DNA of 64,000 nt from Patescibacteria group bacterium (GTDB lineage Bacteria > Patescibacteriota > Gracilibacteria > UM-FILTER-43-11): NCBI GenBank assembly GCA_018813295.1, contig JAHJBZ010000033.1, forward strand, positions 7,422 to 71,421, in the 5' to 3' direction. Positions within the stretch are counted from its first letter, which is position 1; every line of letters starts with the position of its first letter. Made by a program: the position numbers and the translations under genes. The notes beneath the pieces were generated by a model. It saw only the letters and a list, made by a program, of their open reading frames with translations. It was not told the origin of the DNA and ran no database searches. Below are positions 1,190 through 56,404 of the stretch, piece by piece.

Positions 1190-1227
1190 GTGAAATGTTA
1201 AATGTCAAAAGTTAAAAGTCAAATGTT
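1190..1227. repeat. Degenerate 7-nt tandem arm (AAATGTC/AAAAGTT type)
   Basis: tgaaatg ttaaatg tcaaaag ttaaaag tcaaatg; same unit as 28367, 43646 and 43954. Confidence 0.6.
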
Positions 1228-1974
1228 GTTTTTATAACTACTAGGAAGAGTATTTCGCAATGTATAAGTTGTTTGGTAAGAGGCTCTAACCGTTTGATAT
1301 GCCATCAATTCATTTTCATCGGCCGCTTCCCCAAATGGATAACGATGACGAGCTCTTACATAAATTTGAACATATGGTTGCAAATCCCGATCACCACTAA
1401 CGCGTGGATCAGCTGGCACTTCAATGTCAAAATCTTCAATTACGGTTTCTGATGAGTGTAACGGAAATGCATCTCCATTGCTAAACGCGATCATTAAACG
1501 AGCGGTATCTCCGTTATCACCACTTGAGGTATATGGTTCGCGGTAAATAGTAAAATACTGGGTTTCAGCACGGTCGGAAAAAATTGATATCTTATCAGTT
1601 TCTTGATTAATTCCTTCGCTCGGTTGGTTGCTATTGCTTTCGATTGTATCCGCATAATTAATTGCAAATCCTGAGCGTACAAGGCCGGGAATCCCATTAT
1701 TTAAGGCAATACTGGTTTCAAAATTTATATCTTTTTTATAACGAATAACTTCCTTAAAGTGGTATACGGAAAATAAATTCTGCATAACGATCGCGGAAAG
1801 GAATCCAAAAAATCCCATTACAATTATTAATTCAATTAAGGTAAAACCCTTATTATTAGGACTTTTAAGATTATTAAGACTATTACGACTATTGGGATGT
1901 AACCTATTAGAGATATCCATCCTAAAAGTCGTAAAAGTCGTAAAAGTCCTAATCGTCTTAATAAAATTTTTCAT
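1219..1974 (-). CDS. Type IV minor prepilin with long repeat-derived leader
   Basis: KGFTLIELIIVMG class III signal after a ~43-aa leader. Confidence 0.8.
   Translation of the reverse strand: MKNFIKTIRTFTTFTTFRMDISNRLHPNSRNSLNNLKSPNNKGFTLIELIIVMGFFGFLSAIVMQNLFSVYHFKEVIRYKKDINFETSIALNNGIPGLVRSGFAINYADTIESNSNQPSEGINQETDKISIFSDRAETQYFTIYREPYTSSGDNGDTARLMIAFSNGDAFPLHSSETVIEDFDIEVPADPRVSGDRDLQPYVQIYVRARHRYPFGEAADENELMAYQTVRASYQTTYTLRNTLPSSYKNNI
1853..1963. repeat. 9-nt periodic inverted-repeat hairpin inside the prepilin leader
   Basis: ttaggactt ttaagatta ttaagacta ttacgacta ttgggatg ... catcctaa aagtcgtaa aagtcgtaa aagtcctaa tcgtcttaa. Confidence 0.85.
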
Positions 1975-1990
1975 TTAGAATTTGTAATTG

Positions 1991-2482
1991 CTATTGTGTA
2001 TTATCAGCCAGATAAGTACTGTACGAGATAACTTCATTACCTTCACTGCAATCGATTGGGTCACCCCAGCGAACAGTTACGGCAACCTGTTTTATCAGCT
2101 GACTATCTCCGGTGAAAGCAACCGTTCTGCAGTAAGTTGTATACGGCTCTTCCTCCATTTCAATATTTTCATTCTCACCATATGTCAGAGTGAATTCATC
2201 TCCACTTTGACCCAATATGTAATTACCAGATTTACTACCTATTGCACTGACAAAGCCATTTTCACGATTTCTATTTACAGCAGTTTGGCGAATTTGCATT
2301 ACGCGCTCTACCCCCTCTGTAACCAGGAAGTGGGCACGGGTTCTTACTATCTGTTCGGTTGTTTTAAGTAACAAAAAATTTACAGTTGCCCATGTTAGAG
2401 CGAGAAAAATTCCAACTATGGAGAAAGTTATTAAGCTTTCCACGAATGTAAATCCCGATTTTGAGTTGATAATTTTTCGCAT
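1991..2482 (-). CDS. Type IV minor prepilin (PilV-like)
   Basis: SGFTFVESLITF class III signal; RAHFLVTEGVERV; VAVTVRW. Confidence 0.8.
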   Translation of the reverse strand: MRKIINSKSGFTFVESLITFSIVGIFLALTWATVNFLLLKTTEQIVRTRAHFLVTEGVERVMQIRQTAVNRNRENGFVSAIGSKSGNYILGQSGDEFTLTYGENENIEMEEEPYTTYCRTVAFTGDSQLIKQVAVTVRWGDPIDCSEGNEVISYSTYLADNTQ

Positions 2483-2498
2483 AATGTAAAAGGTAGAT

Positions 2499-2527
2499 AT
2501 GCTAGTAGTTTATATGCAGGATGTCAA
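2499..2527 (-). promoter_or_regulatory. Putative sigma70 promoter for the prepilin genes
   Basis: TTGACA-17-TAGCAT on minus strand. Confidence 0.45.
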
Positions 2528-2575
2528 GTATATTTCCTGATATATAGAGATATGCTAAAAAAACCTAAATTCTTC

Positions 2576-2640
2576 AAAGCCTTAAGTCTTAAGTTTTAAG
2601 CTATAAGCCTAATCCTTAAAACTTAATCCTTACAGCTTAT
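2576..2640. repeat. 7-nt periodic inverted hairpin (TAAG/CTTA family)
   Basis: ttaagtc ttaagtt ttaagct ataagc / cttaaaa cttaatc cttacag cttat. Confidence 0.75.
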
Positions 2641-2647
2641 CTAGTAA

Positions 2648-4414
2648 CTAACTAGACAGCACCGCATTATTCACCTCTTCAAATGTGGTAAGTCCGTTTA
2701 ACACCTGCAGATAGCCATATTGCTGGATGGTAAGCATTCCATTTTTCTCCGCAGCTTCTTGTATTTTATCCTCATTTCCTTGCTCAAAGTTGATTATGCG
2801 ACGTATATCATCATTAACTTTCATAATTTCCATAATACCCATACGTCCTTTATAACCTATGTCATTACAAGTTTTACATGTATCACCATTAGCATAAGGA
2901 GCGTAAATTTTTGCATCCTTTTTAGCTTCCAAAAAAAGATCTTTTACAGGCTTGGATGTATTTCTAAATGCTTCAGTAATTTTCTCCATTATCATTTTTT
3001 CATCGGGATGACTACGACGGCAGTCGGTACATACACGTCTAATCAACCGCTGTGCAAGAACAAACTTAAGCGATGAACTAATAAAATAATAAGGTACATT
3101 CATCTGAAGCAGGCGCGTAATAGAGGAAGCAGCTGTATTGGTATGCAGGGTTGAAAACACCAAGTGACCTGTGTTGGCAGCCTCAAAAGCTTTGGAGGCA
3201 GTTTCCTCGTCACGCATTTCCCCCACCATAATAATATCCGGATCTTGACGCAAAATGACCCTTAGCCCCGAAGCAAAATCATAGCCAATGCGATGGAATG
3301 TTTGAGATTGATTTACAAGTGGAATTTCGGCTTCAATCGGATCTTCCAATGTAATAACATTACTGCTAACTCTATCGATCTGCTGAAGTAATGCATAAAG
3401 TGTTGTAGTTTTACCGGAACCTGTTGGACCCGTCACACAAATAAATCCATGCGGATATGTTATTGATTCTTCCAACAGGTTTAATTGATAAGGCAAAATG
3501 TCTAAGCCGTATAAATCACATTTTTCAACATCTGCCATCTGCCTAAGAACTATTTTCTCCTCTTGTGCATTTCTTACAGTGCTTGGCATAAAGGAGAGAC
3601 GAAAGTTATAAACTCTACCATTAAGCTCAAATGAAATACGGCCATCCTGAGGAAGTCTTCTCTCATCTATTTTTAGGCTAGCATCGAGCTTCAGTTTATT
3701 CACTATTCCTCGATACAGCATAATGTCATCATAAAAATTTTCATCTGAACATTTGCCATCAACTCTATAACGCAATTTAAAACCAGCTTGCCCTTTGTCA
3801 TCCAGCGCTAAATCGATATGTATATCCGAAGCATCACGTAATATGCTTTCTTTTAACATCTTATAAACAAAGGCATTTGCATCTGCAGCCTGCGCGTCGT
3901 CAACTTCCAGTATTTCTATTTGGCTCTTTGCGCCTAATGCTCCCTTGTCTTCTACATTGCTCAATAGCAAATTATTAAAATTGTCATTGATGTAATTACA
4001 TGTGATTTGTGACATTACGGTGAGTGGAGTGCTTATAAGATCGGCTTGTTGAATTGAATCTTGTAACTCGCTATGCAGTGGATCAAGGCACAGAATCCTA
4101 TCCCCATTATCATCTCGTATCAAAAACGCTCCGTGATTTGATAGGTTCTCAAGGGAAAAAACATCATGTTCGATAATAATTATATCTTCAGTGTGTGGAA
4201 AATATGAAAGATCTAGTAAATGGGCTATAAGTTTACCCATTTTTTCCGATAATCCCGGATTTTCATTTATAAAAACACGTAGAGATGAGAGCTGATTTTC
4301 TTCAGCCTTTCTTTCTAATTCATTTAAATCCCCTTCAGACAAAAAACCATTTTCAAGCAAATAATCAATTACTTTCTTACTAATTTGTGGAGAATATCGA
4401 AAAGATTTTTGCAT
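2648..4414 (-). CDS. pilB: GspE/PilB family pilus assembly ATPase
   Basis: ASDIHI, RLPQDGR, Walker A GPTGSGKTT, LRQDPDIIMVGEMRD, TLHTN, tetracysteine motif. Confidence 0.9.
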   Translation of the reverse strand: MQKSFRYSPQISKKVIDYLLENGFLSEGDLNELERKAEENQLSSLRVFINENPGLSEKMGKLIAHLLDLSYFPHTEDIIIIEHDVFSLENLSNHGAFLIRDDNGDRILCLDPLHSELQDSIQQADLISTPLTVMSQITCNYINDNFNNLLLSNVEDKGALGAKSQIEILEVDDAQAADANAFVYKMLKESILRDASDIHIDLALDDKGQAGFKLRYRVDGKCSDENFYDDIMLYRGIVNKLKLDASLKIDERRLPQDGRISFELNGRVYNFRLSFMPSTVRNAQEEKIVLRQMADVEKCDLYGLDILPYQLNLLEESITYPHGFICVTGPTGSGKTTTLYALLQQIDRVSSNVITLEDPIEAEIPLVNQSQTFHRIGYDFASGLRVILRQDPDIIMVGEMRDEETASKAFEAANTGHLVFSTLHTNTAASSITRLLQMNVPYYFISSSLKFVLAQRLIRRVCTDCRRSHPDEKMIMEKITEAFRNTSKPVKDLFLEAKKDAKIYAPYANGDTCKTCNDIGYKGRMGIMEIMKVNDDIRRIINFEQGNEDKIQEAAEKNGMLTIQQYGYLQVLNGLTTFEEVNNAVLSS

Positions 4415-4493
4415 AAATTGTTATTATGAAGGGCTAATATTTATTCGTAGGTAATTGCGATTATACATGACTGACTAACTGATTTCCAGATTC

Positions 4494-7178: not shown

Positions 7179-7213
7179 TATGTTTAGTTAAAAGCAAGGA
7201 GATCATTATAGCC

Positions 7214-8456: not shown

Positions 8457-9086
8457 CTATATGGATTGATCGATTAAATCCTCATATTTGTCGTTTAAAA
8501 ACATGTACGGCCAATTTTCGGGGAGGTTGTGTTTTTCGGGGTTGCGTTTGATGTACTCCCAATGGCTATCGAAATCGTTGTCGTCGCGGATGTAATGATC
8601 GTGGTATGATTTGTGCCATTTGAATTTGGGGTATGGATTGCGATTTGAATATTCGGTTTTGAAACGGAATTTTAACAATTTTAATTTTTGATCATGTTCG
8701 TCGATAATTTGTCGAAAACATTCATACTCACTCCCCCGAAGGCGCGATTCGCGAATCGCGCCTTCGGATTTGGGATAATCGAGTTGATTATGACCAATAA
8801 CGTAATTCATATCACGGGTTACATGCCGTTTCAAAAATTGCATTATTTTCGATAAACCAAATTCCTCCCCCGGTTTTAACAGCAAATGAAAATGATCATA
8901 ACCCAAAAACCACGCATACAAATAAAATTCTTTTAATTTTTTACATAACCTTAAATTTTCGACAAATAAATCACAAAATATCCGTTCTTTAAAATACGGA
9001 CATCAATTAAATGTGTTTGTTGTAACAAAATACGTGCCGTCTTCGACGTAAATACGTTTTTGAGAATCGCGATGTTTTTTCTTCAT
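8457..9086 (-). pseudogene. REP-associated tyrosine transposase (RAYT, IS200/Y1 HUH family) with in-frame TGA at 9003-9005
   Basis: ATG at 9086 gives MKKKHRDSQKRIYVEDGTYFVTTNTFN*CPYF... in frame with DHFHLLL (HUH), WHKSYHDHYIR and YIKRNP. Confidence 0.8.
8736..8767. repeat. Perfect 32-bp REP-like palindrome within the RAYT CDS
   Basis: CCGAAGGCGCGATTCGCGAATCGCGCCTTCGG. Confidence 0.9.
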
Positions 9087-9229
9087 ACAAAATATTCATT
9101 AAATACTAATAACTCATTTAAATTCAAAACAGGTTACTTTTGCATCACGATTATACAATGGATGTCAATAACCGCTTGTACACAACGGTTTTATTCGTTA
9201 AAATGTGCCTAGCTTATAAACAAAAATAA

Positions 9230-11371
9230 ATGGCAAGAAGAGTAACGTCTGCCAGACACAACAGACGACTTAAAAAAAAGGATTTTAAGATTGAATTGGA
9301 ATCTCATGTTGCACGCGAGGTTGGTGCGATTATTTATTTAGGTTTGGCCGCTGTTTTTTATCTGGTGATTAGTGGTAGGGCAGGGATTCTTGGCGAATGG
9401 GTAAATACCTATCTCAGACTTATTTTTGGAATAGGAATCCTAGCGCTTCCGGTACTTTTTTTGGCACTGGCGGTGACCTTATTTGTATCCAGGCGGATCA
9501 GGTTGGATACAACTCGTTATTTAGGGATTGGATTACTGCTTTTTTCGGGATTGGGACTTGTGCACATGCGTACTCCTATGGACGCGATGCTAGATAATGT
9601 TGAATTACATGGAGGATATGTCGGTTTTTTGGCATCTGTTTTGCTTCGTATATTTATCTCCGATGTTGCCACAAGAGTAATACTTATTGTCGTTCTTATT
9701 ATCGCGATTTTGATCACCTTTGAGGTATCAATTAGGAAGTTAATCGCCTTAGTAATTCCTGATCGCCAAATAAAAGTTGGCACTAAACTACCTACTGTGG
9801 ATAGAAAAGCCAGGATGCTTAAAAAAGGTGAGGAGGAATTAAATATTGTAAAACCGCTTCTTAACAATAAGACGGAGGAGGAGGCCCAACCATTTAAAAT
9901 CAATAAGTCCCAACCAGTTAAAAAAGAGGAGGCGAAAATGAAGGTTGATGAAGCCGATTATAGTGATTGGGAATTCCCACCGTTCGACCTTCTTAGTTCA
10001 GCAAGTTCTGAGGTTTATGTAAGTGATAAAATTTTAAAGGAGAATGCGGAAAAGATTAAGGAAAAACTTATGCAGTTTGGTATCGATGTAACGATGAAAG
10101 ATGTAAATATCGGACCAACGGTTTTGCAATATACTCTTCAGCCTCATGAGGGAATTAAGCTGAATAAGATTACAGCTTTAAAAAATGATTTGGCTTTAGC
10201 TCTTGCTGCAAAGTCGATAAGAATGGAGGCGCCAATTCCTGGTAAATCCTTGGTGGGTATTGAGGTGCCGAATGAAAAAAGGATGATCGTACACCTGAGG
10301 GAAATGATCGAAAGCGAGGAGTTTAAGAGTGTTGATTCAAAGTTGCGTTTAGTTGTTGGCCGTGATGTTAGCGGCGCGCCTGTTATTGATGATTTGACTT
10401 TTATGCCGCATCTTTTAATTGCAGGTGCAACTGGTTCCGGTAAATCAGTTGGTATGAATGCGTTTTTGATTTCTTTGCTCTATCAAAATTCTCCGCGTGA
10501 TCTTAAGTTTATTATGATCGATCCAAAACGTGTGGAGCTTACAACTTACAACGGTATTCCGCATTTGCTCACTCCTGTTATAACTGACCCTGAAAAGGCG
10601 CATACGTCTCTTAAATGGGCAGTTGCAGAAATGAATCGTCGCTACAAGGAATTCCAGGAAAAGAAATATAGAAATATTGAGGAGTATAACGAAGGTGAAG
10701 AGAAAAAAATGTATAAGATTATTATTGTTATCGATGAGCTCGCTGATTTGATGATGCAGGCAACCAAAAAGGAAACGGAAGCTTTGATTTGCCGCATTGC
10801 CCAAATGGCTCGCGCTGTTGGCATTCATTTGATTATTGCAACACAAAGGCCAAGTGTGGATGTAATTACCGGTGTCATTAAAGCAAACATTCCTACCCGT
10901 ATTGCTTTTACTGTGACATCCGGTGTGGATAGTAGAACTATTATTGATACTGTTGGCGCTGAAGATTTACTTGGAATGGGTGATATGCTTTATCTCCCGG
11001 GCAATATGAGCAGGCCAATTAGAGTGCAGGGTGTTTATGTATCCAGTAAGGAGATAGAGAGGGTTAGCAATCGCGTAAAACTGACTATTGAACCAAGTTA
11101 TGATGAAAGTATTACAGAAATTTCATCTTCCGGTACTGGTATGGTTGGTTCTGATGGTGATGGATCGGATCAAGACAATTTGTTCGATGATGCTGTTCAG
11201 GTTATAAAGGACACAGGTAAGGCTTCTGCATCTTTACTTCAAAGACGTTTAAGTGTTGGTTATGCTCGTGCCGCAAGAATTTTGGATATAATGGAGGAGC
11301 ATGGACTTATTGGGCCGGCGAATGGAGCGAAACCACGTGAAATTTATATCACTGATAGTGATACTGATTGA
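9230..11371 (+). CDS. ftsK: DNA translocase FtsK/SpoIIIE
   Basis: 4TM N-terminus, PHLLIAGATGSGKS, IDELADLM, gamma domain ASLLQRRLSVGYARAAR. Confidence 0.97.
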   Translation: MARRVTSARHNRRLKKKDFKIELESHVAREVGAIIYLGLAAVFYLVISGRAGILGEWVNTYLRLIFGIGILALPVLFLALAVTLFVSRRIRLDTTRYLGIGLLLFSGLGLVHMRTPMDAMLDNVELHGGYVGFLASVLLRIFISDVATRVILIVVLIIAILITFEVSIRKLIALVIPDRQIKVGTKLPTVDRKARMLKKGEEELNIVKPLLNNKTEEEAQPFKINKSQPVKKEEAKMKVDEADYSDWEFPPFDLLSSASSEVYVSDKILKENAEKIKEKLMQFGIDVTMKDVNIGPTVLQYTLQPHEGIKLNKITALKNDLALALAAKSIRMEAPIPGKSLVGIEVPNEKRMIVHLREMIESEEFKSVDSKLRLVVGRDVSGAPVIDDLTFMPHLLIAGATGSGKSVGMNAFLISLLYQNSPRDLKFIMIDPKRVELTTYNGIPHLLTPVITDPEKAHTSLKWAVAEMNRRYKEFQEKKYRNIEEYNEGEEKKMYKIIIVIDELADLMMQATKKETEALICRIAQMARAVGIHLIIATQRPSVDVITGVIKANIPTRIAFTVTSGVDSRTIIDTVGAEDLLGMGDMLYLPGNMSRPIRVQGVYVSSKEIERVSNRVKLTIEPSYDESITEISSSGTGMVGSDGDGSDQDNLFDDAVQVIKDTGKASASLLQRRLSVGYARAARILDIMEEHGLIGPANGAKPREIYITDSDTD

Positions 11372-11476
11372 GGGACTAATTGAAGGACCAATAGAAGGAC
11401 CATTGTTGAACTAATGGTTGAACTAATCGATGAGTCCACCAATAAGTTCACCAATAAGTTCACCTATTAGTACAAC
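11370..11476. repeat. ~12-nt periodic inverted hairpin
   Basis: attgttgaacta atggttgaacta / aagttcaccaat aagttcacctat. Confidence 0.75.
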
Positions 11477-11485
11477 AATAGAAAA

Positions 11486-12295: not shown

Positions 12296-12778
12296 TTACT
12301 CAGCTACCTCTTCTCCACACTCCCCTTTCACATAAGTATCGACGTTTCCACTTGCACATGCTCCGCAGGCATTTCCGTATGTAACTCCGTCATCACCACA
12401 AACCGGGGTGTAATCCATTGTGCAGATTTCCGCTGCTTTTTGTTCTTCGGTACATGTTTGTGAGGAGGTTTCCTCCTCATCAGCCTCTTCTTCATCATCA
12501 CCAAAAACATTGCTGACCTTGTCTACGGTTTCACCCACAGCATCCACAGCATCGCTAACTGTATCAATTGCATCCTCAACACCTTCTTTGGTGTCTTCGA
12601 CTTTATCCACAACATCAGATACTTTGTCTTTTACCCGATCATACTCCTCAGCAACATTATCCCGTTTTTCCGTAAAGCTATCCTTTACGCCCTGAACATA
12701 TTCATCAACAGAAGGTATTTGAAGTAAAACAAAAGCGATAACAAATATTGAAACAAGTATTAGTAATTTTTTAGCCAT
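12296..12778 (-). CDS. Membrane-anchored protein with amphipathic helical repeats and C-terminal Kazal-type domain
   Basis: CTMDYTPVCGDDGVTYGNACGAC...GEC Kazal signature; N-terminal TM. Confidence 0.8.
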   Translation of the reverse strand: MAKKLLILVSIFVIAFVLLQIPSVDEYVQGVKDSFTEKRDNVAEEYDRVKDKVSDVVDKVEDTKEGVEDAIDTVSDAVDAVGETVDKVSNVFGDDEEEADEEETSSQTCTEEQKAAEICTMDYTPVCGDDGVTYGNACGACASGNVDTYVKGECGEEVAE

Positions 12779-12842
12779 GATTATTTTGGTTAATTGACGC
12801 AACAATTATATCAATTACCGATGCTTAATGTCCAATGACCGA

Positions 12843-15375: not shown

Positions 15376-15389
15376 AATAATTTTTTAGT

Positions 15390-15450
15390 ATTAAGTTATA
15401 AGTCTTAAGGATTAAGCCAGCTTACAACTTAGGACTTATAACTTATAGCT
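15390..15450. repeat. 7-nt periodic inverted hairpin (TAAG/CTTA family)
   Basis: ttaagtt ataagtc ttaagga ttaagc / cttacaa cttagga cttataa cttatag. Confidence 0.8.
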
Positions 15451-19856: not shown

Positions 19857-19893
19857 TCAACGAAATAACGAGATAACGACACAACGAAACAAC
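19857..19893. repeat. 8-nt periodic arm abutting the lepA start
   Basis: caacgaaa taacgaga taacgaca caacgaaa caac-ATG. Confidence 0.75.
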
Positions 19894-21702: not shown

Positions 21703-21781
21703 TTTAAGATTAACCGATTAGCGATTAGTGATTTACGATTTCAATCTAAAATCTAAAATTGCTAATCTTAAATCGCTAATC
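21697..21781. repeat. 7-nt periodic inverted hairpin (GATT/AATC family)
   Basis: gattagc gattagt gatttac gatt / aatctaa aatctaa aattgct aatctta aatcgct aatc. Confidence 0.8.
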
Positions 21782-21789
21782 AAAACAAG

Positions 21790-22394: not shown

Positions 22395-22455
22395 AGGATT
22401 CAGGAAACAGGATTCAGGATTCAGCTGTTTCCAGAGTCCTGAATCCTGAATCCTC
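22395..22455. repeat. 7-nt periodic inverted hairpin (GGATTCA/TGAATCC)
   Basis: aggattc aggaaac aggattc aggattc / gagtcct gaatcct gaatcct. Confidence 0.8.
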
Positions 22456-24014: not shown

Positions 24015-24021
24015 ATTTTAT

Positions 24022-24119
24022 TAAAAAATTACAAAAATTTAAAATTACAAAATTATTTAATAATGTAACGAAACTATTTTAAACTAATTTTGTAATTTTG
24101 TAATCTTGAATTTTGTAAT
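24022..24119. repeat. 8-nt periodic inverted hairpin (AATTACAA/TTGTAATT)
   Basis: aaattaca..aaattaca aaatta / taattttg taattttg taatcttg aattttg taa. Confidence 0.7.
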
Positions 24120-25699: not shown

Positions 25700-25800
25700 A
25701 AACGACGAAACAACGATACAACTTTATTTTTCATTTTTCAATTTTCATTTTTCAATAAATTGACAGCCGTCGACTCCCGCTCAGCGGGGCTCCGTCGGAA
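25700..25800. repeat. Stack of three repeat families (8-mer ACGAAACA, 7-mer TTTTCAT, GC-rich CCGACGGAG element)
   Basis: aacgacgaaacaacgatacaac; ttttcat ttttcaa ttttcat; tgacagccgtcgactcccgctcagcggggctccgtcggaa. Confidence 0.8.
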
Positions 25801-28366: not shown

Positions 28367-28430
28367 TTTGACATTTAACATGTAACAATTAACATATGAC
28401 AGAATTGTCAAATGTTAATTGTTACATGTT
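28367..28430. repeat. 7-nt periodic inverted hairpin (TGACATT/AATGTCA family)
   Basis: tgacatt taacatg taacaat taacata tgaca / tgtcaaa tgttaat tgttaca tgtt. Confidence 0.8.
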
Positions 28431-30821: not shown

Positions 30822-30886
30822 AGGATTCAGAAATCAGGATTCAGTAAAAACAGCTTAATCCTTAATGCTTAATCCTTAATGCTTAA
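30822..30886. repeat. 7-nt periodic arms (GGATTCA and CTTAATC families)
   Basis: aggattc agaaatc aggattc ag; cttaatc cttaatg cttaatc cttaatg cttaa. Confidence 0.75.
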
Positions 30887-32169
30887 TTAATCGTCGTTCC
30901 AATATAGAAGAATGGAAGCATAACTGCGAGCAAAATTGATCCAACCAATGCGGCTACTATAAAAATCATAATCGGTTCGACGAGAGTAGAAATATTTTTG
31001 AGTGTGTAATCGATACTTTTGTGGAAATTCTTTTTAATTTTAAACAGCATCTCGGAAATTCTTCCTGTTGATTCGCCAATGTGAATTAATTGGGCAACTT
31101 GCAGTGGAAAAAGCTTATTCTTTTTAAATTTTTGAGTTCTGATATCTTCAAGCCCCATCATCTCACTTATCTGTTTACCCATAATTATTCCATGACGAAT
31201 TTTCGCTAAGGCGCGTTGATAATGGAGGTTTGGAATTGTCTTTTCGGTGATTGCAAAAGCATCGCTAATAAGCACTCCACTCTTCATAAGCATTCCCATA
31301 TTGGCTGCAATCATCATTAGATTCTTTTCTTTATTCAATCGACCAACAATAGGAATGATGCTCACAAAGTTTTCCCAAATCAGCCTTCCAATTCGCGTTT
31401 TTACAAAGAAAAGCCATAGCAATACTACAGTTCCAACAATTGATATCAGAAGTATCATCCAGCTTGCTGCAACAAAATCGCTAATATCAATTACCGCCTG
31501 GGTAAGCTTTGGCAGTTCAACTTTGGCCTGATCATACATCGCAGCAATTTTTGGAATAACGAAAGTCATCATTCCGGCTACAAGTGCCATCGACAAACAC
31601 ACCAAAACCACCGGGTAAAACATAGCACCGGTAATCTTCCTCATAAAATCTTGATTGGCCTCCATTTCTTCTGTGAGTTCAATTAATACGACACTAAGAT
31701 TTCCACTTTTTTCCGCCGCTTCAACTAAAGCCGCCTGCATTTTTGGAAAAATATGCGGAAATAAATACATAGATTCAGCTAAGCTCATACCCGTATTTAT
31801 ATGATGGATCATTTCGCCATATAACTTTTTAAGCCCCTTACTTGTTGTTTGGGCCTGCACAAGTGATAGGGAGTCTATTAAAGTTACACTTGAGTCAACA
31901 AGGGTTGCCATTTGATCATAAAAATACAAACGGTCTTTGGATGACATGCGTAACATTTTTAGGCCAAACGATATTTTGGTGGCTTCTTGTTTCATTCCTG
32001 TCACAGCTTTTTCTTCTATTTTCTTTTCTTTATCCTTATCCTTGGACGCGAGATTTCGCGTTCCTACGGTTTCTTTTTTATTTCGATGAAAAATTTTGTC
32101 AAAAAACAGCTCAATTTCGAGCCAAAAATCTGAAAAGGTGTCTCTGATTTTGTATGCTAGTGCTGTCAT
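30883..32169 (-). CDS. pilC: Type IV pilus inner membrane platform protein (GspF/PilC)
   Basis: AAEKSGNL, AMFYP, FVIPKIA, IGESTGR, LVEPIMI. Confidence 0.92.
   Translation of the reverse strand: MTALAYKIRDTFSDFWLEIELFFDKIFHRNKKETVGTRNLASKDKDKEKKIEEKAVTGMKQEATKISFGLKMLRMSSKDRLYFYDQMATLVDSSVTLIDSLSLVQAQTTSKGLKKLYGEMIHHINTGMSLAESMYLFPHIFPKMQAALVEAAEKSGNLSVVLIELTEEMEANQDFMRKITGAMFYPVVLVCLSMALVAGMMTFVIPKIAAMYDQAKVELPKLTQAVIDISDFVAASWMILLISIVGTVVLLWLFFVKTRIGRLIWENFVSIIPIVGRLNKEKNLMMIAANMGMLMKSGVLISDAFAITEKTIPNLHYQRALAKIRHGIIMGKQISEMMGLEDIRTQKFKKNKLFPLQVAQLIHIGESTGRISEMLFKIKKNFHKSIDYTLKNISTLVEPIMIFIVAALVGSILLAVMLPFFYIGTTIN
32044..32067 (-). repeat. GTAG-type REP in-frame in the pilC N-terminus
   Basis: Minus strand GTAGGAACGCGAAATCTCGCGTCC encoding VGTRNLAS. 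Confidence 0.75.
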
Positions 32170-32171
32170 TT

Positions 32172-32600
32172 TTAATTGGGAGTATTGGGATTACTAGGAA
32201 TATTGGGGTCATTGGGATTTTTTTTGGATTCAGATAAGCGACAAAGGAGAAATCCCGTTTTATTAATTAATTCAATTAAATGTTCATAGTCGGATTTTGT
32301 AATATATTCTAATGCAAGAGCTAGTTCGGAATGACTGTCTACTTCTACCAATGAACTATAAGAGATATTGAAGAAATGTAATTTGTCACGCACTCCATTT
32401 CTTTCATTTCCTTCAGCGATATTAGACATGACCGATACTGACGCCCTTTTTATCTGACTACTTAATCCAAATTTTTCATCAGACGGAAATTTTTTTGCCA
32501 ATTGATAGACTTTCAAAGTAAGCTCTTTAGCTTTTTGCCAAACTATCAACTTCCTGAATGTTCTCTGATATTGTTTTTGCATAAATTTGTTTTTTATCAC
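32172..32600 (-). CDS. Four helix bundle protein (23S rRNA IVP/TIGR02436-like, Avd-related fold)
   Basis: FRKLIVWQKA, FPSDEKFGLSSQIKRASVSVMSNIAEG, SLVEV. Confidence 0.92.
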   Translation of the reverse strand: MIKNKFMQKQYQRTFRKLIVWQKAKELTLKVYQLAKKFPSDEKFGLSSQIKRASVSVMSNIAEGNERNGVRDKLHFFNISYSSLVEVDSHSELALALEYITKSDYEHLIELINKTGFLLCRLSESKKNPNDPNIPSNPNTPN

Positions 32601-32642
32601 TCACAATCCTCTTAGTAATCCCAATACTCCTAATACTCCCAA
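32176..32642. mobile_element. Cassette: 9-nt periodic inverted arms enclosing the four-helix-bundle gene
   Basis: Left 32176-32220 ttgggagta ttgggatta ctaggaata ttggggtca ttgggattt; right 32598-32642 reverse complement ttgggagta ttaggagta ttgggatta ctaagagga ttgtgagtg. Confidence 0.7.
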
Positions 32643-37027: not shown

Positions 37028-37134
37028 TTGTCTGAACTATGATTTTTTATGATTATTATGATGGGCATGATTTTTTTATATGCAATTAGTAAATCATAAA
37101 AATCAATTAATCACACAAATCACAGTTCAGACAA
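37028..37134. mobile_element. TTGTCTGAAC MITE-like element copy 3, directly after a TAA stop
   Basis: TAA|TTGTCTGAACTATGATT...AATCACAGTTCAGACAA. Confidence 0.8.
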
Positions 37135-40140: not shown

Positions 40141-41040
40141 ATGAAAGGAATGGAGATAAAAGTTGAAAAAAACGTAGATTTAAACCAATTCACCACTTAC
40201 CACACTGGTGGTCCTGCTAAATTTTTTGCACGAGTGCAAAACTGGCAACAGATGTTGGGACTTCGTGAATTTGCAAGAGTGAACAAGATCCCATATTTGA
40301 TTTTGGGTGGTGGTAGCAATATTTTGTTTGCAGATGAAGGGTATCCGGGGTTGGTTATTATGAACCAAATGGATAAGGTTCGCATTCACCAACACACCAT
40401 TACCGCAGAAAGCGCAGTTAACTTGATGAAATTAGTTGTGATTGCTGCAAAAAATAATTTAGGCGGAATTTCCGGTCTTGCTAATGTGCCGGGAAGTGTT
40501 GGCGGTGCTGTTTATGGTAATGCTGGTGTATCGGATGTTTGTATCAGTGATGTATTTATGCATGCTGAGATACTCCCGACAAATGGAAATAAGCCGATTA
40601 TTGTTGGTCAGGACTATTGCCAGTTTGGGTATAGAACAAGCCGTTTTAAAGAGACAAAAGACATTATTCTTTCAGCTACATTAAAACTGCAGCCAGCACC
40701 AGCGCCATTAATTCAGTCTCAGGTTAGTGCATATGTTAAACAAAGGACTTTAAAACAACCGGTTGGAATGTCCTGCGGAAGCTTCTTTAAAAATCCAGGT
40801 GAATTTCCATCAGCCGGGTGGTTAATTGAGCAGAGTGGATGTAAGGGGATGAAGGTTGGAGGTGCACAAGTCTCTGAAAAACACGCCAATTTTATTTTAA
40901 ATACAGGTACGGCAACAAGCTCTGATATTGTGAATCTTGCACTTAAGGTTCATAAAAAAGTGGAGGAGAAGTATAGTGTTAAACTCGAGCCGGAAGTGCA
41001 GATTTTGCCGGGCAGCCCTTTTAAAAACTTGAAAACTTGA
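40141..41040 (+). CDS. murB: UDP-N-acetylenolpyruvoylglucosamine reductase
   Basis: GGGSNIL, PGSVGGAVYGNAG, CGSFFKNP, SEKHANFI, LEPEV; start 40141 or 40150. Confidence 0.95.
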   Translation: MKGMEIKVEKNVDLNQFTTYHTGGPAKFFARVQNWQQMLGLREFARVNKIPYLILGGGSNILFADEGYPGLVIMNQMDKVRIHQHTITAESAVNLMKLVVIAAKNNLGGISGLANVPGSVGGAVYGNAGVSDVCISDVFMHAEILPTNGNKPIIVGQDYCQFGYRTSRFKETKDIILSATLKLQPAPAPLIQSQVSAYVKQRTLKQPVGMSCGSFFKNPGEFPSAGWLIEQSGCKGMKVGGAQVSEKHANFILNTGTATSSDIVNLALKVHKKVEEKYSVKLEPEVQILPGSPFKNLKT

Positions 41041-42881: not shown

Positions 42882-42974
42882 CGCACGGGAATGATTGATT
42901 TTTCGCCAATTCTTGCTTTTTTTGCATTGGATTTTTTGCAGATTGGAATAGTGAGCCTGTTCGACACGATATAA
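42882..42974 (+). pseudogene. yggT: Duplicated 3' remnant of yggT
   Basis: Encodes RTGMIDFSPILAFFALDFLQIGIVSLF, identical to 42190-42270, then DTI*. Confidence 0.9.
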
Positions 42975-43038
42975 CGAAACAACGAGGCAACGATATAACT
43001 ATGTTATTTCGTCGTTTCGTCGTTTCGTTGTCTCGTCA
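42961..43038. repeat. 8-nt periodic inverted hairpin (ACGAAACA family, both arms)
   Basis: acgatata acgaaaca acgaggca acgatata ac / gttatttc gtcgtttc gtcgtttc gttgtctc gtc. Confidence 0.85.
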
Positions 43039-43139: not shown

Positions 43140-43643
43140 ATAACTAAGCGCTTACGTACTAATCAGGGTATCCGAGTTCCTAAGGTTTTATTAGTTGATG
43201 GGGATTCAGCCGAGGAAGTCACAACCGAAGAGGCATTAAGCCGTGCCCGAGAAAAAGGTCTGGATTTAGTTGAGGTTTCACCATTAAGTTCACCACCGGT
43301 TTGTAAGATTATAGACTATGGTACGTATCTCTACAGCCAAAAGAAGAAAGAGCAAAAGCAAAAACGTGCAACAAAGCAAACTGAAACAAAAACTATTCGC
43401 TTAAGCATTCGCACCGAAAGTCACGACTTGGATGTGAAAGCTAAAAAAGCTCGCAAATTCCTTGAAGATAGGAATACTGTGAAAGTTGTTGTTATCTTTA
43501 GGGGGCGTGAAATGGCTCATGGAGATCTGGCTGAATCAAAAATGAATGAATTCTTTAAGCTGCTAGAGGACATTGCCAACATTGAACAACAGCCTAAAAG
43601 GCAAGGATATCAGATGACCATGATACTTAATCCGCTTAAATAA
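43140..43643 (+). CDS. infC: Translation initiation factor IF-3 (non-canonical ATA start; ATT at 43125 is an alternative)
   Basis: Frame extends upstream of 43428: RTNQGIR...GLDLVEVSP..PPVCKIIDYG; C-domain FRGREMAH. Confidence 0.93.
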   Translation: MTKRLRTNQGIRVPKVLLVDGDSAEEVTTEEALSRAREKGLDLVEVSPLSSPPVCKIIDYGTYLYSQKKKEQKQKRATKQTETKTIRLSIRTESHDLDVKAKKARKFLEDRNTVKVVVIFRGREMAHGDLAESKMNEFFKLLEDIANIEQQPKRQGYQMTMILNPLK

Positions 43644-43645
43644 CA

Positions 43646-43727
43646 TTTGACAATTGACAATTGACTCCCGCTAAGCGGGATCAAATGTCACATGTCAAAT
43701 GTGAAAAATTTTATCTCGTAAAATTTT
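43646..43727. repeat. 82-bp composite hairpin before rpmI
   Basis: 7-mer TTGACAA arms around CCCGCTAAGCGGG, then AAAATTTTAT-CTC-GTAAAATTTT; 4 mismatches to 43954-44035. Confidence 0.9.
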
Positions 43728-48423: not shown

Positions 48424-48432
48424 AACATTTTT

Positions 48433-48527
48433 TTAGGATTAAGTTTTAAACCTAAGTCATAAGTCCTAGGTCTTAAGTCATAAGTCAGCTTAAAACTTAG
48501 CTTAATCCTTATTTCTTAAGACTTAGG
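48433..48527. repeat. 7-nt periodic inverted hairpin (TAAG/CTTA family)
   Basis: ctaagtc ataagtc ctaggtc ttaagtc ataagtc / cttaaaa cttag cttaatc. Confidence 0.75.
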
Positions 48528-52158: not shown

Positions 52159-52187
52159 AATTCTGTTGTGGGGCTATTGTGGTTAAG

Positions 52188-52281: not shown

Positions 52282-52303
52282 GGAGCGATAATTGATTTTT
52301 ATT

Positions 52304-52397
52304 TAAGAATATCGAATATCCAACATCGAACATCGAATTTTTTAAATACTTCTAAAATCATTATTCGATATTCGGTGTTCGATATTTATTAATATTT
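52304..52397. repeat. 7-nt periodic inverted hairpin (ATCGAAT/ATTCGAT)
   Basis: atcgaat atccaac atcgaac atcgaat / attcgat attcggt gttcgat att. Confidence 0.8.
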
Positions 52398-53061: not shown

Positions 53062-53066
53062 AATTA

Positions 53067-53165
53067 AAACGATGCGACGATACGACGAAACAACGATACA
53101 ACAGGTTTGAAAATTTGAAAATCTGAAAAATAATTTTCAAGTTTTCATATTTTCATATTTTCATT
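53067..53165. repeat. Adjacent 8-nt periodic repeats (ACGAAACA arm and TGAAAA/TTTTCA hairpin)
   Basis: acgatgcg acgatacg acgaaaca acgataca; tgaaaatt tgaaaatc tgaaaa / ttttcaag ttttcata ttttcata ttttcat. Confidence 0.75.
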
Positions 53166-53177
53166 TACAATTGATTA

Positions 53178-54122
53178 GTGTTCCAATACATTGCTGACAT
53201 CATCACTTACAACTTATTTAGTTTGACGGAAGGTAGTCAGATAGCTTTGGCGACCAATTTTTTCTTTTATGACGTTTTAAAAATTCTGTTTTTGATTTTT
53301 ATGGTTGTAACGGTTATTGCTTTTCTGCGGTCATTTTTTGATCCGAATAAATTTAAACAATCGATGGCTAAATTGAAATGGGGTTCTGGTAATATCGCGG
53401 CTGCTTTGTTTGGTGCGGTGACCCCATTTTGTTCTTGCTCTTCAATTCCGCTTTTCGTCGGTTTTATTGAATCTAAACTTCCGCTTGGGATTGCTTTTTC
53501 GTTTTTGATCACTTCTCCGCTTGTAAATGAGGTGGCTTTTGTGATTATGGGCGGGCTTTTTGGGTGGAAACTTGCATTTATGTATGCTATTTCCGGAATA
53601 GCTTTGGGTGTTGTTGGTGGCTTGATTATTGGTGGACTGAAAATGGAAAAAGAGATTGTTTTAGAAGATGCTGAAGGTAAAAAACTTGAAAGCCAAATGC
53701 CAAAAAGCCTGGATGGCAAAGTTCGTTTTGCCTTTCGTTTTGGCTGGTGGACATTTAAAAAATTGCTTCCTTACGTGATTGGCGGTGTCGCAATAGGTGC
53801 TGTAATTCACGGCTATGTGCCACAAGAATTTTTTGTAAATACCATTGGAAAATATGAATTACTTTCCGTGCCTATTGCTGCAATTGTTGGTATTCCTATT
53901 TATGCTGGCTGTTCAACTGTTGTTCCGATTATATTTTCAATTACAGCAAATGGCGTACCACTCGGAACAGCCCTTGCTTTTATGATGGCTATTGCGGGGC
54001 TTTCGCTTCCAGAGGCTGTAATGCTAAAAAGAGTGCTCAGTTTAAAACTACTCGCCATATTCTTTGGACTTGTGGCGGTTGGAATTGTGATGATTGGGTA
54101 TTTGTTTAACTTTTTAAGTTAA
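53178..54122 (+). CDS. ArsP/DUF318-family permease
   Basis: TPFCSCSSIP, FLITSPLVNE, GTALAFMMA..GLSLPE. Confidence 0.88.
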   Translation: MFQYIADIITYNLFSLTEGSQIALATNFFFYDVLKILFLIFMVVTVIAFLRSFFDPNKFKQSMAKLKWGSGNIAAALFGAVTPFCSCSSIPLFVGFIESKLPLGIAFSFLITSPLVNEVAFVIMGGLFGWKLAFMYAISGIALGVVGGLIIGGLKMEKEIVLEDAEGKKLESQMPKSLDGKVRFAFRFGWWTFKKLLPYVIGGVAIGAVIHGYVPQEFFVNTIGKYELLSVPIAAIVGIPIYAGCSTVVPIIFSITANGVPLGTALAFMMAIAGLSLPEAVMLKRVLSLKLLAIFFGLVAVGIVMIGYLFNFLS

Positions 54123-54599
54123 TCCACCAAAACTCACTGCAATCCATCTTCCCACCCAATTTGTGATAAAGATTACAAGTAAGGCGATGCCCCAATGCTC
54201 ACCGACTATCTTCCAGGCGGGTTCTTTTTGATTTTGTGCCATCCAAAAGCTGATTAGGCCGAGCATAAGCATTCCCCAAATTATGCTAATTATAACCGCT
54301 TGCTGTAGGCCAAAAAATACAACTGGGATAACAAATGTTAAAGCGAACAATAATTTGGCGAGAAAGGTGGCAATTGTGGATTCCCAGACTTCCTTTTGCG
54401 TGTGAACATTTTCGGATTCTTCGGAAATGTGAATTCCAAGAGCGTCGGAAAAAGCATCGGCGATTGCGATTGTAAGTATGCCGCCAAGCACTGCCAGCTG
54501 GGAATGTGTACCGGAATACAGACCCACCATCATACCAAGTGTGGTGATGATACCGGAGGTTAGGCCGAAGCTTATGCCTTTTATATATGATAACTTCAT
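54114..54599 (-). CDS. VIT1/CCC1-like membrane protein
   Basis: SFGLTSGIITTLG, AIADAFSDALGIHISEE. Confidence 0.75.
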   Translation of the reverse strand: MKLSYIKGISFGLTSGIITTLGMMVGLYSGTHSQLAVLGGILTIAIADAFSDALGIHISEESENVHTQKEVWESTIATFLAKLLFALTFVIPVVFFGLQQAVIISIIWGMLMLGLISFWMAQNQKEPAWKIVGEHWGIALLVIFITNWVGRWIAVSFGGLT

Positions 54600-54604
54600 T
54601 CTTC

Positions 54605-54708
54605 GTAATTTTTAATTTTTAATTTTTAATTTTGTAAATAAGTAACAATTTTAAAATTCAAATTTAGAATTTATTTAAAAATTACAAAAATTACAATAAT
54701 TAAAAAAT
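54605..54708. repeat. 7-nt periodic AT-rich inverted hairpin (AATTTTT/AAAAATT)
   Basis: taatttt x4 / aaaaatt acaaaaatt acaataatt. Confidence 0.55.
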
Positions 54709-54725
54709 CGAGTACATTATATACC

Positions 54726-54758
54726 AAAAACAACCCCCATAACATGAGAGTTGTTCTT
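54726..54758 (-). terminator. Putative intrinsic terminator of the RRM gene
   Basis: AACAACTCTCAT-GTT-ATGGGGGTTGTT-TTT on minus strand. Confidence 0.6.
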
Positions 54759-54780
54759 TGAGATAGTTTTAAATAAAAAA

Positions 54781-55038
54781 TTATCTTTCTCGTGGTGGTC
54801 GAGCTTCGTTTACGATGATCTTACGACCGTCGAGTTCTTTTTCATGCCACATATCGATAGCTGCTTGAGCTTCTGCTTCTGTGGCCATGGTAACGAAACC
54901 GAAACCTTTTGAGCGACCAGAAAATTTATCAGTGATGATGATTGCTTCTTCGACTGTACCAGCCTGAGCAAAAGCATCACGAAATGCATCTTCTGTAATT
55001 TTGTAGGATAGATTTCCTACGTATAATTTTCTTTCCAT
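54781..55038 (-). CDS. RRM-domain RNA-binding protein
   Basis: RNP2 LYVGNL, RNP1 KGFGFV, VNEARP. Confidence 0.95.
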   Translation of the reverse strand: MERKLYVGNLSYKITEDAFRDAFAQAGTVEEAIIITDKFSGRSKGFGFVTMATEAEAQAAIDMWHEKELDGRKIIVNEARPPRER

Positions 55039-55168
55039 TATGGTAAAAAATTAAGTAAATAAATGCGAACCTTCTCACTATGACTTCTATCCTTGGTGTC
55101 ATGAGAAGCGTTGATCACACTCATTCACTCAGAGAAAGAAAAACAAACTAGAGAAAAATTACTGCGAA

Positions 55169-55197
55169 AGTATAGTGTAGAAAGGATTTTTAGTCAA
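55169..55197 (-). promoter_or_regulatory. sigma70 promoter of the RRM gene (long leader)
   Basis: TTGACT-17-TATACT. Confidence 0.65.
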
Positions 55198-55311
55198 GTT
55201 GTTTGTAAACTTTAATAAGACTTTAAGTGGATTTTCCTTTGTTCAGATAAAATCCCCCTTTGTTAAATTATCAAAAATAATTTGTCACCTTTAGCGACAA
55301 TATATTTTTGA

Positions 55312-55401
55312 TGGCGGAGAGACAGGGATTCGAACCCTGGAGACCTTTGCAGGCCTAACGGTTTTCAAGACCGCCGCATTCGACCGCTCTGCCATCTCTC
55401 C
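55312..55401 (-). tRNA. tRNA-Ser (anticodon TGA)
   Basis: GGAGAGATGGCAGAGCGGTCGAATGCGGCGGTCTTGAAAACCG...long variable arm...GTTCGAATCC...CCA. Confidence 0.96.
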
Positions 55402-55487
55402 ATATGCAGGGAAAAGTTTAGGGAAAACGATGCTAAAAAGCAAGTTGAGTTGTGCTAAAATGTAGAAGCTCAATTTCGCTACTACCT

Positions 55488-55820
55488 ATGAAAAAACAAC
55501 ACCGCCTTGTTTATTGGCTTCCGAGAGTTTTGACTATTATATATATAGTATTTATCAGTCTTTTTGCTTTAGATACTTTAGGTGAAGAAAATTTTTTCAT
55601 TCCATTACTTATCCATCTCATCCCTAGTTTCGTTTTGATAGCAGTGCTGTGGATGTCCTGGAAGAAAGAAGTGATCGGTGGAATTATGTTTTTGGCATTT
55701 GCAATTTTTTATTTAACCATCTCCTGGGGAAAAGCCGACCCATTTGCATATTTGGTAATGATAGGTCCGCTACTTTTGATCAGCTTCCTCTTTTTTGGAA
55801 ATTATATAATTAAAAAATAA
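55488..55820 (+). CDS. Small hypothetical membrane protein
   Basis: WLPRVLTIIYIVFISLFALD; ~4 TM. Confidence 0.7.
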   Translation: MKKQHRLVYWLPRVLTIIYIVFISLFALDTLGEENFFIPLLIHLIPSFVLIAVLWMSWKKEVIGGIMFLAFAIFYLTISWGKADPFAYLVMIGPLLLISFLFFGNYIIKK

Positions 55821-55823
55821 ATT

Positions 55824-56291
55824 ATGGATCTATTTGAAGCTATAAAAAATCGCCATATGTGCCGGAATTTTGATACGGAAAAAGCTATACCGGATGATGT
55901 TATGGAAAAATTGATTGATGCCGGCAAAAGCGCCCCTTCAGCCGGGGGACTAAAGGATCAGAGGTTTAAAGTGGTATCGGATTGGGAGACAAAAAATATG
56001 CTGGTTGAAGCATCACTGGATCAAAAGCAACTTGCTGATGCTTCAGCTGTAATTGTTGTTTCTTCGGATTTGGATGTGATGGGAGGAAAATATGGCGATA
56101 GAGGGGAAAAATTATATGCCGCACAGGATTGTGCCGCATCTGTTCAAAATATCCTGCTTGCCTGCACAGCTTTAGGATTAGGGGCTTGCTGGATTGGCGC
56201 TTTTGATGCAGAAAGTGTGAAAAAGATTTTGGATTTGCCGGACAGTTATAAGACTACAATTTTGGTGGCGGTTGGATACGAAAAATTGTGA
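55824..56291 (+). CDS. Nitroreductase family protein
   Basis: AIKNRHMCRNF, SAPSAG, QNILLACTALGLGACWIG. Confidence 0.92.
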   Translation: MDLFEAIKNRHMCRNFDTEKAIPDDVMEKLIDAGKSAPSAGGLKDQRFKVVSDWETKNMLVEASLDQKQLADASAVIVVSSDLDVMGGKYGDRGEKLYAAQDCAASVQNILLACTALGLGACWIGAFDAESVKKILDLPDSYKTTILVAVGYEKL

Positions 56292-56404
56292 TTTCTGAAT
56301 CCCGACGGAGCCCCGCGAGCGGGAGTCGACGGCTGTCAGCTGAGGAACCAGGGCATCCGCCGCGGCGGACTGCTCCCTCAGAAATCACGAATCATAAATC
56401 ATAA
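56287..56404. repeat. Nested composite: GTGATTTCTGA/TCAGAAATCAC arms around two GC-rich modules
   Basis: cccgacggagccccgcgagcgggagtcgacggctgtcagctgaggaaccagggcatccgccgcggcggac. Confidence 0.85.

Follow-up and report, generated by a model that had tools for sequence, protein, structure and literature searches.

Hairpins of inverted short tandem repeats occupy gene junctions in a Peregrinibacteria genome and share their architecture with PF05635 gene cassettes

The STRR (short tandemly repeated repetitive) elements of heterocystous cyanobacteria are tandem arrays of heptanucleotides, which lie mainly in intergenic regions and fall into several unit families. A different kind of insert, the intervening sequence (IVS) of rRNA genes, can bear an S23p gene, and the excision of one such IVS by RNase III has been described (PMC4990558). 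Open reading frames (ORFs) of the same protein family, PF05635, were also noted in rRNA insertions of the candidate phyla radiation (CPR) (10.1101/2024.02.27.582315). Hairpin-forming doublets of repetitive extragenic palindromic sequences (REPINs) and the associated tyrosine transposases (RAYTs) make up another intergenic repeat system (PMC3116915), and arrays of the heptamer TAACTGA, reported as 169 direct sets and one indirect set, are found in Beggiatoaceae, Cyanobacteria, and Bacteroidetes (MacGregor, 2015; PMC4679880). Here we analyzed a stretch of 64,000 nucleotides from a CPR genome (G000:C1:7422-71421; hereafter the window), in which the gaps between genes contain degenerate tandem repeats of short period, often arranged as two inverted arms that form a hairpin. 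In the reading that we favor, and to which we give about an even chance, these intergenic hairpins are palindromic short-tandem-repeat elements akin to the stems of IVSs and to STRR arrays, and their full form is a cassette that carries a PF05635 gene.

The window belongs to a Peregrinibacteria metagenome-assembled genome (MAG) of 1.53 Mb in 87 contigs, which is 90.5% complete and has about 38% G+C. The best match of its LepA among named genomes was 90% identical, and the matches were MAGs of Candidatus Peregrinibacteria and Peribacteria, both of the CPR. Genes were called crudely by a greedy choice of the longest ORFs of at least 80 aa, with small genes counting as intergenic and starts being possibly too long. 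Tandem Repeats Finder (TRF) gave 104 rows in the window, chiefly of periods 7, 8, 9, and 12, and an array of period 6-13 was located within 30 nt of 37 of the 61 window junctions, which bears out the original prediction of arrays at about 25-30 junctions. Over the whole genome, 2203 TRF rows stood against 333 after dinucleotide shuffling of the entire sequence and 579 after segment-wise shuffling; the corresponding numbers were 1199 against 39 and 169 for intergenic rows, and 620 against 40 and 82 for rows of period 7. We counted as strict inverted pairs those adjacent arrays, at most 60 nt apart, in which one unit is the reverse complement of the other with at most 1-2 mismatches. There were 84 such pairs in the genome, seven of them in the window, compared with 0 and 1 in the two shuffles. 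The head-to-tail units of 5-11 nt beyond chance are shared with long simple sequence repeats, but the inverted pairing is not accounted for by such repeats, and the claim that the arrays are more than microsatellites could be sustained from these pairs and from the recurrence of whole hairpins at distant loci described below.

In total, 2.8% of the genome and 13.7% of its intergenic bases lie within arrays. Period-7 arrays (n = 582) lie outside ORFs in 82% of cases, whereas arrays of periods 6, 9, and 12 are mostly within ORFs, as would be expected if coding DNA tolerates only frame-preserving periods. The 477 intergenic period-7 arrays comprise 103 distinct canonical heptamers, in keeping with the predicted minimum of eight unrelated and partly recurrent units, and the 25 commonest units are AT-rich. 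None of these 25 resembles what we take to be the classical STRR units. The arrays thus resemble STRR sequences in being intergenic tandem heptamers of several unit types per genome, but differ in that the host is a CPR bacterium, the units are AT-rich, and periods of 8, 9, and 12 are also common. Both the heptamer arrays seen here and the TAACTGA arrays are intergenic and often lie just upstream of start codons, with a patchy distribution across the very phyla that are rich in PF05635 genes; unlike the single and almost always direct TAACTGA unit, many units occur here, often as inverted pairs (PMC4679880).

The geometry of the hairpins is tied to the spacers between genes. Folding of the tandem gaps (n = 483) gave z scores below -3 for 43% of them, and 64 of the 84 strict pairs were located in co-directional gaps, with 11 in divergent gaps, 3 in convergent gaps, and 6 elsewhere. 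The 64 hairpins in co-directional gaps have a median arm of 30.5 nt and a median length of 76 nt; the element starts at a median of 2 nt past the upstream stop codon, and its end lies at a median of 13.5 nt from the following start codon, as placed by the crude start calls. The hairpin element is in effect the entire spacer between stop and next start. With the same crude ORF calls, 22 of the 64 overlap an ORF end, in agreement with the predicted overlap of arms with gene ends. The 14 hairpin sites named beforehand were folded against 60 dinucleotide shuffles each, and 12 of them proved to be structured with z scores from -3.4 to -8.6, whereas the sites at 41024 (z -1.7) and 46745 (z -0.2) did not hold up.

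One element in the window encloses a gene. A gene for a four-helix-bundle protein of PF05635/TIGR02436 (32172-32600, minus strand; Pfam E 6e-36, TIGR02436 E 1.2e-31; PDB relatives 2gsc and 2rld) lies between pilB and pilC and sits exactly between two 9-nt arrays, each the reverse complement of the other. One arm (32175-32217) is at the same time coding, as the PF05635 ORF has its N-rich C-terminal tail there, and the other (32599-32642) is located upstream of its start. As in an rRNA IVS, the two ends of this cassette are complementary and pair into a long stem that encloses an S23p gene. Unlike rRNA IVSs, the elements of the window lie between protein genes rather than in the tips of rRNA helices, their arms consist of short tandem repeats, most of them lack the PF05635 ORF, and a genome contains hundreds of them. 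A 23S rRNA gene with a 567-nt insertion was found in a relative, G009 (L204, ~1030-1600), where the insertion has a closing stem and a divergent open frame that resembles the PF05635 family by eye, without having been scored; this frame was not picked up in our search of genomes for PF05635. The insertion is a classical IVS in the same bacterial family as the present genome, whose own rRNA genes are missing from the assembly. The gene for RNase P RNA of this genome, 401 nt against 367 model positions, contains no large insert.

The genome has seven PF05635 genes. Inverted arms were found at four of the five copies for which both flanks are available, three of them with short-period arrays and one with a CTGTGG palindrome, and each of the two copies at contig ends has one arm. 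Among 41 related genomes, 33 contain a PF05635 gene, and copy numbers reach 16 per ~1 Mb. At 10 of 28 PF05635 loci in these relatives the gene is flanked by an inverted repeat with z > 5, compared with 3% of 151 small control ORFs, and the arms at these loci are again tandem repeats, albeit with a different and unrelated unit in each genome. A tblastn search of plasmids found the gene in 28 records, mostly from Nostocales. We examined 12 of these loci, four of which (L207, L208, L210, and L211, all Nostocales) are homologous and count as one, leaving nine independent loci. At eight of the nine, the gene is directly bordered at its start and at its stop by inverted short-period arrays; these loci are from Nostoc/Trichormus/Aulosira, Anabaena, Calothrix, Picosynechococcus, Geminocystis, Leptolyngbya, Stanieria, and Riemerella, and the armed loci thereby span Cyanobacteriota and Bacteroidota. 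The ninth locus, from Pseudanabaena, has direct arrays, and a flanking inverted repeat reached z > 5 at 8 of all 12 loci. The link between repeat arms and PF05635 genes is real. Three of the armed genes on cyanobacterial plasmids (L209, L213, and L215) lie inside CRISPR-cas operons, with cas6/cas4 in two and cas10/cmr3 in the third.

A broader proposal can be made tentatively, and we give it well under an even chance: PF05635 genes with inverted arms may be one unrecognized class of element across phyla, which settles in the tips of rRNA helices and in operon spacers, with STRR arrays and CPR hairpins as its gene-less progeny and with a protein that binds the arms in trans and drives spread, homogenization, or RNA processing. 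A PF05635 gene between inverted short-period arms is an arrangement seen alike in a CPR lineage, among cyanobacteria of the Nostocales and of other groups, and on a Bacteroidota plasmid. In this genome of 1.5 Mb, the gene-less copies take up 13.7% of intergenic DNA. Two old puzzles would merge if the proposal is true, namely the nature and origin of the cyanobacterial STRR arrays and the role of the widespread S23p or 'four helix bundle' genes of rRNA IVSs. In the literature that we searched, no paper joined the PF05635 protein family with these repeats, and nothing relevant was found on Peregrinibacteria and repeats.

The PF05635 family is also homologous to Avd, an accessory protein of diversity-generating retroelements (NF033474 E 1.4e-9; PMC10053308). 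Unlike in those retroelements, no reverse transcriptase gene lies beside any of the seven PF05635 copies. A link to such a retroelement or to a reverse transcriptase was rejected, as the sole reverse transcriptase gene of the genome is on another contig among restriction and defense-like genes. No PADLOC model matched the PF05635 protein or the RAYT-like protein discussed below.

The pilB-pilC site allowed comparison of cassettes with gene-less hairpins. The gene order in relatives is pilB, pilin gene, pilC, and a PF05635 cassette occupies this site in the present genome (L178) and in L180, L182, L188, L195, and L198, whereas L196 has a gene-less hairpin, L187 and L190 have other arrays, and L181, L185, L186, and L192 have a plain short leader. 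A hairpin of 9-nt period elsewhere in the window (1853-1952; minimum free energy (MFE) -39.8, z -6.7) lies in the leader-coding region of a prepilin ORF with an N_methyl motif (1219-1974, minus strand). Its two arms can both be closely aligned with those of the L182 cassette, and the aligned arms are followed by the same prepilin motif, G|F(T/S)LIEL, in ORF 1219-1974 and in L182. Judged by these alignments, the hairpin at 1853-1952 is a gene-less homologue of the PF05635 cassette. In the five relatives with a cassette (L180 ~478-1515, L182 ~460-1494, L188 ~155-1213, L195 ~415-1479, and L198 on the minus strand), the PF05635 ORF continues in frame into the prepilin through the 9-nt arm, which encodes an N-rich linker, giving a fused frame of ~345-356 aa with a prepilin that starts G|F(S/T)L(V/I)E. 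As predicted from these frames, the four-helix bundle would be a giant prepilin leader, or the pilin would start internally.

The arms of the six orthologous cassettes were compared with each other. The mean local score of arm complementarity was 42.7 within a genome and 26.5 between genomes, and the pairing of arms from the same genome was the row maximum in five of six rows. The arms of the orthologous cassette, 400 nt apart, change together between genera. Such co-evolution could arise from selection for the stem or from conversion between the arms, either of which gives the same pattern.

The density of arrays was compared with gene content in at most 20 kb per genome, using 35 of 40 genomes after five with less than 9 kb had been dropped. 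The density of period 7-8 arrays rose with the number of PF05635 genes per Mb (rho 0.41, p ~0.015, n = 35, not corrected for kinship), from a mean of 1.0 arrays per 10 kb in genomes without PF05635 to 3.7 in those with seven or more. The suggestion made beforehand of a connection with four-helix-bundle genes has been borne out both by this co-occurrence and by the arms around the complete copies.

These observations can be combined in the following scheme. The full form of the element would be two inverted repeat arms enclosing a gene for a four-helix-bundle protein of ~120 aa (PF05635/TIGR02436, Avd-like), and the far commoner gene-less hairpins would be derivatives or relatives of such cassettes. 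The units presumably lengthen and shorten by replication slippage, with a period of 7 or 8 in non-coding DNA and of 9 or 12 where the arm is translated, and gene conversion or template switching from one arm to the other may keep the two alike. Once transcribed, arms of ~30 nt would form long imperfect stems, which RNase III could cut as in the rRNA IVS, and such cutting would let the insert sit harmlessly between cistrons. On this likeness, the elements are probably related to rRNA IVSs and STRR arrays.

Copies of the same hairpin recur in the genome. An all-against-all BLAST search of 898 gaps gave 1119 matches between gaps of at least 45 nt and at least 85% identity, and a heptamer hairpin on contig C32 is 100% identical over 76 nt, including the loop, to one on C73. 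CAGCTG stands at the tip in all four AGGATTC pairs whose printed loop contains it (expected, 0.6 per 84 loops), while a fifth AGGATTC pair (C1 38243, window 30822) lacks it. Ten hairpins of 9-nt period share a GGAT...ATCC tip together with one arm type, which is that of the hairpin at 1853-1952. We rejected this 9-nt family as a marker of pilin genes, as only 1 of 11 period-9 pairs adjoins a prepilin motif. Shared arms and tips together with near-identical copies at several loci imply families that have spread by copying, and the recurrence of near-identical whole hairpins at distant loci favors copying or mobility. A comparison with non-autonomous transposons of the miniature inverted-repeat type, which have terminal inverted repeats, a target-site duplication, and an autonomous relative that encodes a transposase, gave a mixed picture: inverted arms and a gene-bearing full form are present here, but target-site duplications were not seen by eye, and PF05635 is no known transposase. 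The prediction of one mechanism behind all of the repeats stood in so far as copying or mobility is favored, but was too simple, as solo arrays, complex palindromes, and a REP/RAYT-like system coexist with the hairpins. Its other option, stems for mRNA processing, found no support in the strand test of G-U pairs described below.

Orthologous junctions showed both filled and empty states and a turnover of units, which the original prediction had proposed to look for. The conserved lepA-ribE-ribH-STAS junctions have heptamer hairpins in the window and hairpins of unrelated units in L001, L004, and L014. The lepA-ribE junction, which unrelated units fill in these three genomes, is empty in L016, and the ribE-ribH junction is empty in L002, L003, L010, and L016; at one junction or more of this set, the spacers of these four genomes measure 2-26 nt. 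The density of arrays is likewise high in some relatives and at background level in others. A scan of metagenomes with RibE found relatives with at most 50% identity and no closer strain.

This turnover could also be read in another way. The hairpins may be a mutational by-product formed in place, in which slippage in AT-rich spacers favors heptamers and template switching turns the arrays into palindromes, with no mobility, protein, or function involved and with PF05635 genes merely co-located. Unrelated units at the same junction in different genera and empty junctions in others would be natural outcomes of such a process, as would the near-continuum of units (93 of the 103 heptamers join one single-linkage cluster at 1 mismatch), and heptamers predominate among the long simple repeats of many bacteria (Mrazek, 2007, as cited in PMC4679880). 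The lack of a sense-strand G-U bias and the weak covariation described below point in the same direction. In-place formation does not explain why near-identical whole hairpins with their loops and family-specific tips recur at distant loci, why arms 400 nt apart co-evolve, or why the same unit is inverted on both sides of PF05635 genes in three phyla when only 3% of control ORFs have flanking inverted repeats. We hold this explanation to be unlikely.

Several results weigh against reading the hairpins as relatives of PF05635 cassettes. Inspection by eye revealed no transposase, target-site duplication, or excision product for the hairpins, and we know of no catalytic activity of PF05635 proteins. 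One complete PF05635 copy of this genome, on C87, has no arms, and clear arms were found at no more than the 10 of 28 loci in relatives. The correlation between PF05635 genes and arrays is modest, comes from at most 20 kb per genome, and ignores kinship; four genomes (G001, G016, G022, and G024) have many PF05635 genes yet few arrays in the 20 kb sampled. Two studies eight years apart gave identical hairpins, with no visible turnover over that interval. Among 206 structured tandem gaps, the antisense strand folded better in 119 and the sense strand in 86 (mean difference 1.09 kcal/mol), and G-U pairs numbered 733 in the antisense and 551 in the sense folds, whereas selection on an RNA stem of the sense strand would predict the reverse. 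Finally, the identity between arm units within hairpins was 0.82 in the matching register, 0.79 in a shifted register, and 0.84 between neighboring units of one arm, and unit-by-unit covariation within hairpins is weak.

The same tests bear on the possibility that the hairpins evolved for the host as RNA signals rather than as selfish elements. The position of the hairpins exactly between stop and next start and their concentration in co-directional gaps (64 of 84 pairs) would fit such signals, as would the arm length, which suits RNase III, and the co-evolution of the arms; a gene for RNase III was found in this genome. Solo 8-nt arrays that end at start codons, such as that before lepA (19859-19893), resemble the TAACTGA arrays, which have been proposed as regulator sites (PMC4679880). 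Other observations speak against host signals as the main cause: divergent (52%) and convergent gaps (45%) carry arrays almost as often as tandem gaps do (58%; all gaps of 30-600 nt), close relatives lack hairpins at the same junctions, the G-U strand test was negative, and no U-tract follows the stems. We consider this explanation decidedly unlikely. Intrinsic, Rho-independent terminators were rejected outright: TTTT follows 5 of the 64 hairpins and precedes 4 of the 64, and terminator-like sites number 16 compared with 17.0 +/- 4.2 in shuffles, none of them on an array. The prediction that these are not ordinary terminators was therefore correct. Consensus promoter sites were also at the level of shuffles.

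Abundant intergenic, hairpin-forming inverted doublets together with RAYT-like genes are likewise a likeness to REPIN/RAYT systems, and the hairpins could be REPIN-like elements that are moved by RAYT-like Y1 (HUH) transposases acting on single-stranded DNA hairpins. Five Y1_Tnp/RAYT-like genes were found, one in the window (8457-8921, minus strand), possibly 5'-truncated, with a match to NF047646 below the cut-off (E 5.4e-13) and a weak match to Y1_Tnp, and the others on contigs C62, C18, C65, and C17. The C62 gene is flanked by arrays of GC-rich palindromes in a REPtron-like arrangement, and a GC-rich core, CCCGC-N(2-5)-GCGGG, tips some AT-rich hairpins, including that at 43643-43706 in the window. 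A PF05635 gene flanked by its own repeats is itself reminiscent of a REPtron. However, AT-rich tandem arms are absent from the flanks of all five RAYT-like genes, which have GC-rich palindromes or nothing, and array density did not track the number of Y1/RAYT-like genes (rho 0.15, p 0.38) as it did that of PF05635 genes. The gene enclosed here encodes a four-helix bundle and not a transposase, and whereas REPINs keep a conserved sequence, the arms here comprise 103 heptamer units besides other periods, with conservation confined to single families. That RAYT-like transposases move the tandem hairpins is highly improbable, and the RAYT-like gene at 8457-8921 belongs to a repeat system separate from them.

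Of the 75 sites in the genome with the GC-rich core, 55 fall in intergenic DNA, and 30 have a tandem array no more than 60 nt away. In the window it lies at ~16889, 25776, 43667, 43975, and 56312, and it also appears inside some coding 12-nt repeats as well as at the tips of some AT-rich hairpins. Two near-identical copies of the core with heptamer arms, 308 nt apart, are located upstream of rplT; the first is the 7-nt hairpin at 43643-43706 with the core CCCGCTAAGCGGG at its tip, the near-copy lying ~308 nt downstream. Another, GC-richer family of complex palindromes of ~120-150 nt has repeated CTGTGGAT motifs, small GC side hairpins, and at least 10 copies. Members lie on C52, C65, C62, and C72 and, outside the window, at C1:86005-86149, and the family also flanks the PF05635 gene on C8. 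The assignment of the window gap 8922-9229 to this family was wrong; its match on C55 adjoins the RAYT-like gene.

Solo A/C-rich arrays of 8-nt period (AACGAAAY type) stand directly before start codons in the window at 19859-19893, 25700-25722, and 53068-53102, and an array of this type also precedes the pilin gene in L187. These solo arrays may represent leader elements of a kind separate from the hairpins. The array at 19859-19893 (plus strand, AACGAAAT type) ends at the lepA start codon and forms no hairpin (MFE 0.0). The array at 25700-25722 is part of two adjoining, unrelated solo arrays of periods 8 and 7 (25700-25756), with a GC-rich REP-like palindrome next to them near 25776. In a divergent gap, the third array (53068-53102) is followed by an 8-nt hairpin at 53106-53164 (53068-53164 together; z -4.6).

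An assembly artifact as the source of the hairpins was ruled out, as they recur in contigs of run X3 and in independent MAGs of relatives. The X3 contigs, from an independent study, cover several hairpins with 0-2 differences per contig. Contigs of the Logan collection often terminate at hairpins, and between 15000 and 34900 of the window those of public runs X1-X3 stop near 22403-22430, 24093-24114, and 25769-25792; in this MAG, two contigs break off within PF05635 genes. Contig ends at hairpins and cassettes indicate that these elements fragment assemblies. By breaking assemblies and by extending or overlapping predicted gene ends, they affect the quality and annotation of CPR MAGs.

The remaining elements of the window are mostly hairpins of 7-nt period. 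One lies between the pilin gene and the T2SSE ATPase gene (2577-2639; z -3.6), one in a tandem gap (15387-15447; z -8.6), and one fills the lepA-ribE junction (21715-21785; z -4.5). The ribE-ribH junction has an AGGATTC hairpin with a CAGCTG tip (22395-22454; z -8.1), a strict pair with 0 mismatches. At 28367-28430 the pairing is unit-specific (z -7.3), and the AGGATTC / CTTAATC hairpin at 30822-30887 is located upstream of pilC. A further hairpin abuts the gyrA stop codon (48428-48516; z -3.4), and that at 52307-52386 is a strict inverted pair (z -5.0). Among other periods, inverted 12-nt arrays at 11363-11480 (z -4.2) overlap the 3' end of ORF 9230-11371, an 8-nt hairpin downstream of rpmA (L27) is a strict inverted pair (24020-24119; z -5.9), and a 9-nt hairpin lies at 37038-37124 (MFE -23.4). 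Inverted 8-nt arrays of AACGAAAC type occupy 42961-43037 (z -4.6), and AT-only inverted arrays of 7 and 9 nt occupy 54606-54708 (MFE -14.5).

The genes of the window include lepA, ribE, ribH, rpmA, gltX, murB, rplT, and rpmE, two genes of gyrA/parC type, a glycosyltransferase gene of WecG type, and type IV pilus genes, namely two for T2SSE ATPases, pilC, and pilins. A small protein encoded at 12296-12805 (minus strand) combines a DUF948-like N-terminus with a serine protease inhibitor domain of Kazal type, an unusual feature in a CPR bacterium. Elsewhere in the genome, the defense-island-like stretch C48:36146-45755 encodes a large protein of methyltransferase/restriction type, a reverse transcriptase (PF00078), and a caspase-like protein, and is unrelated to the hairpins.

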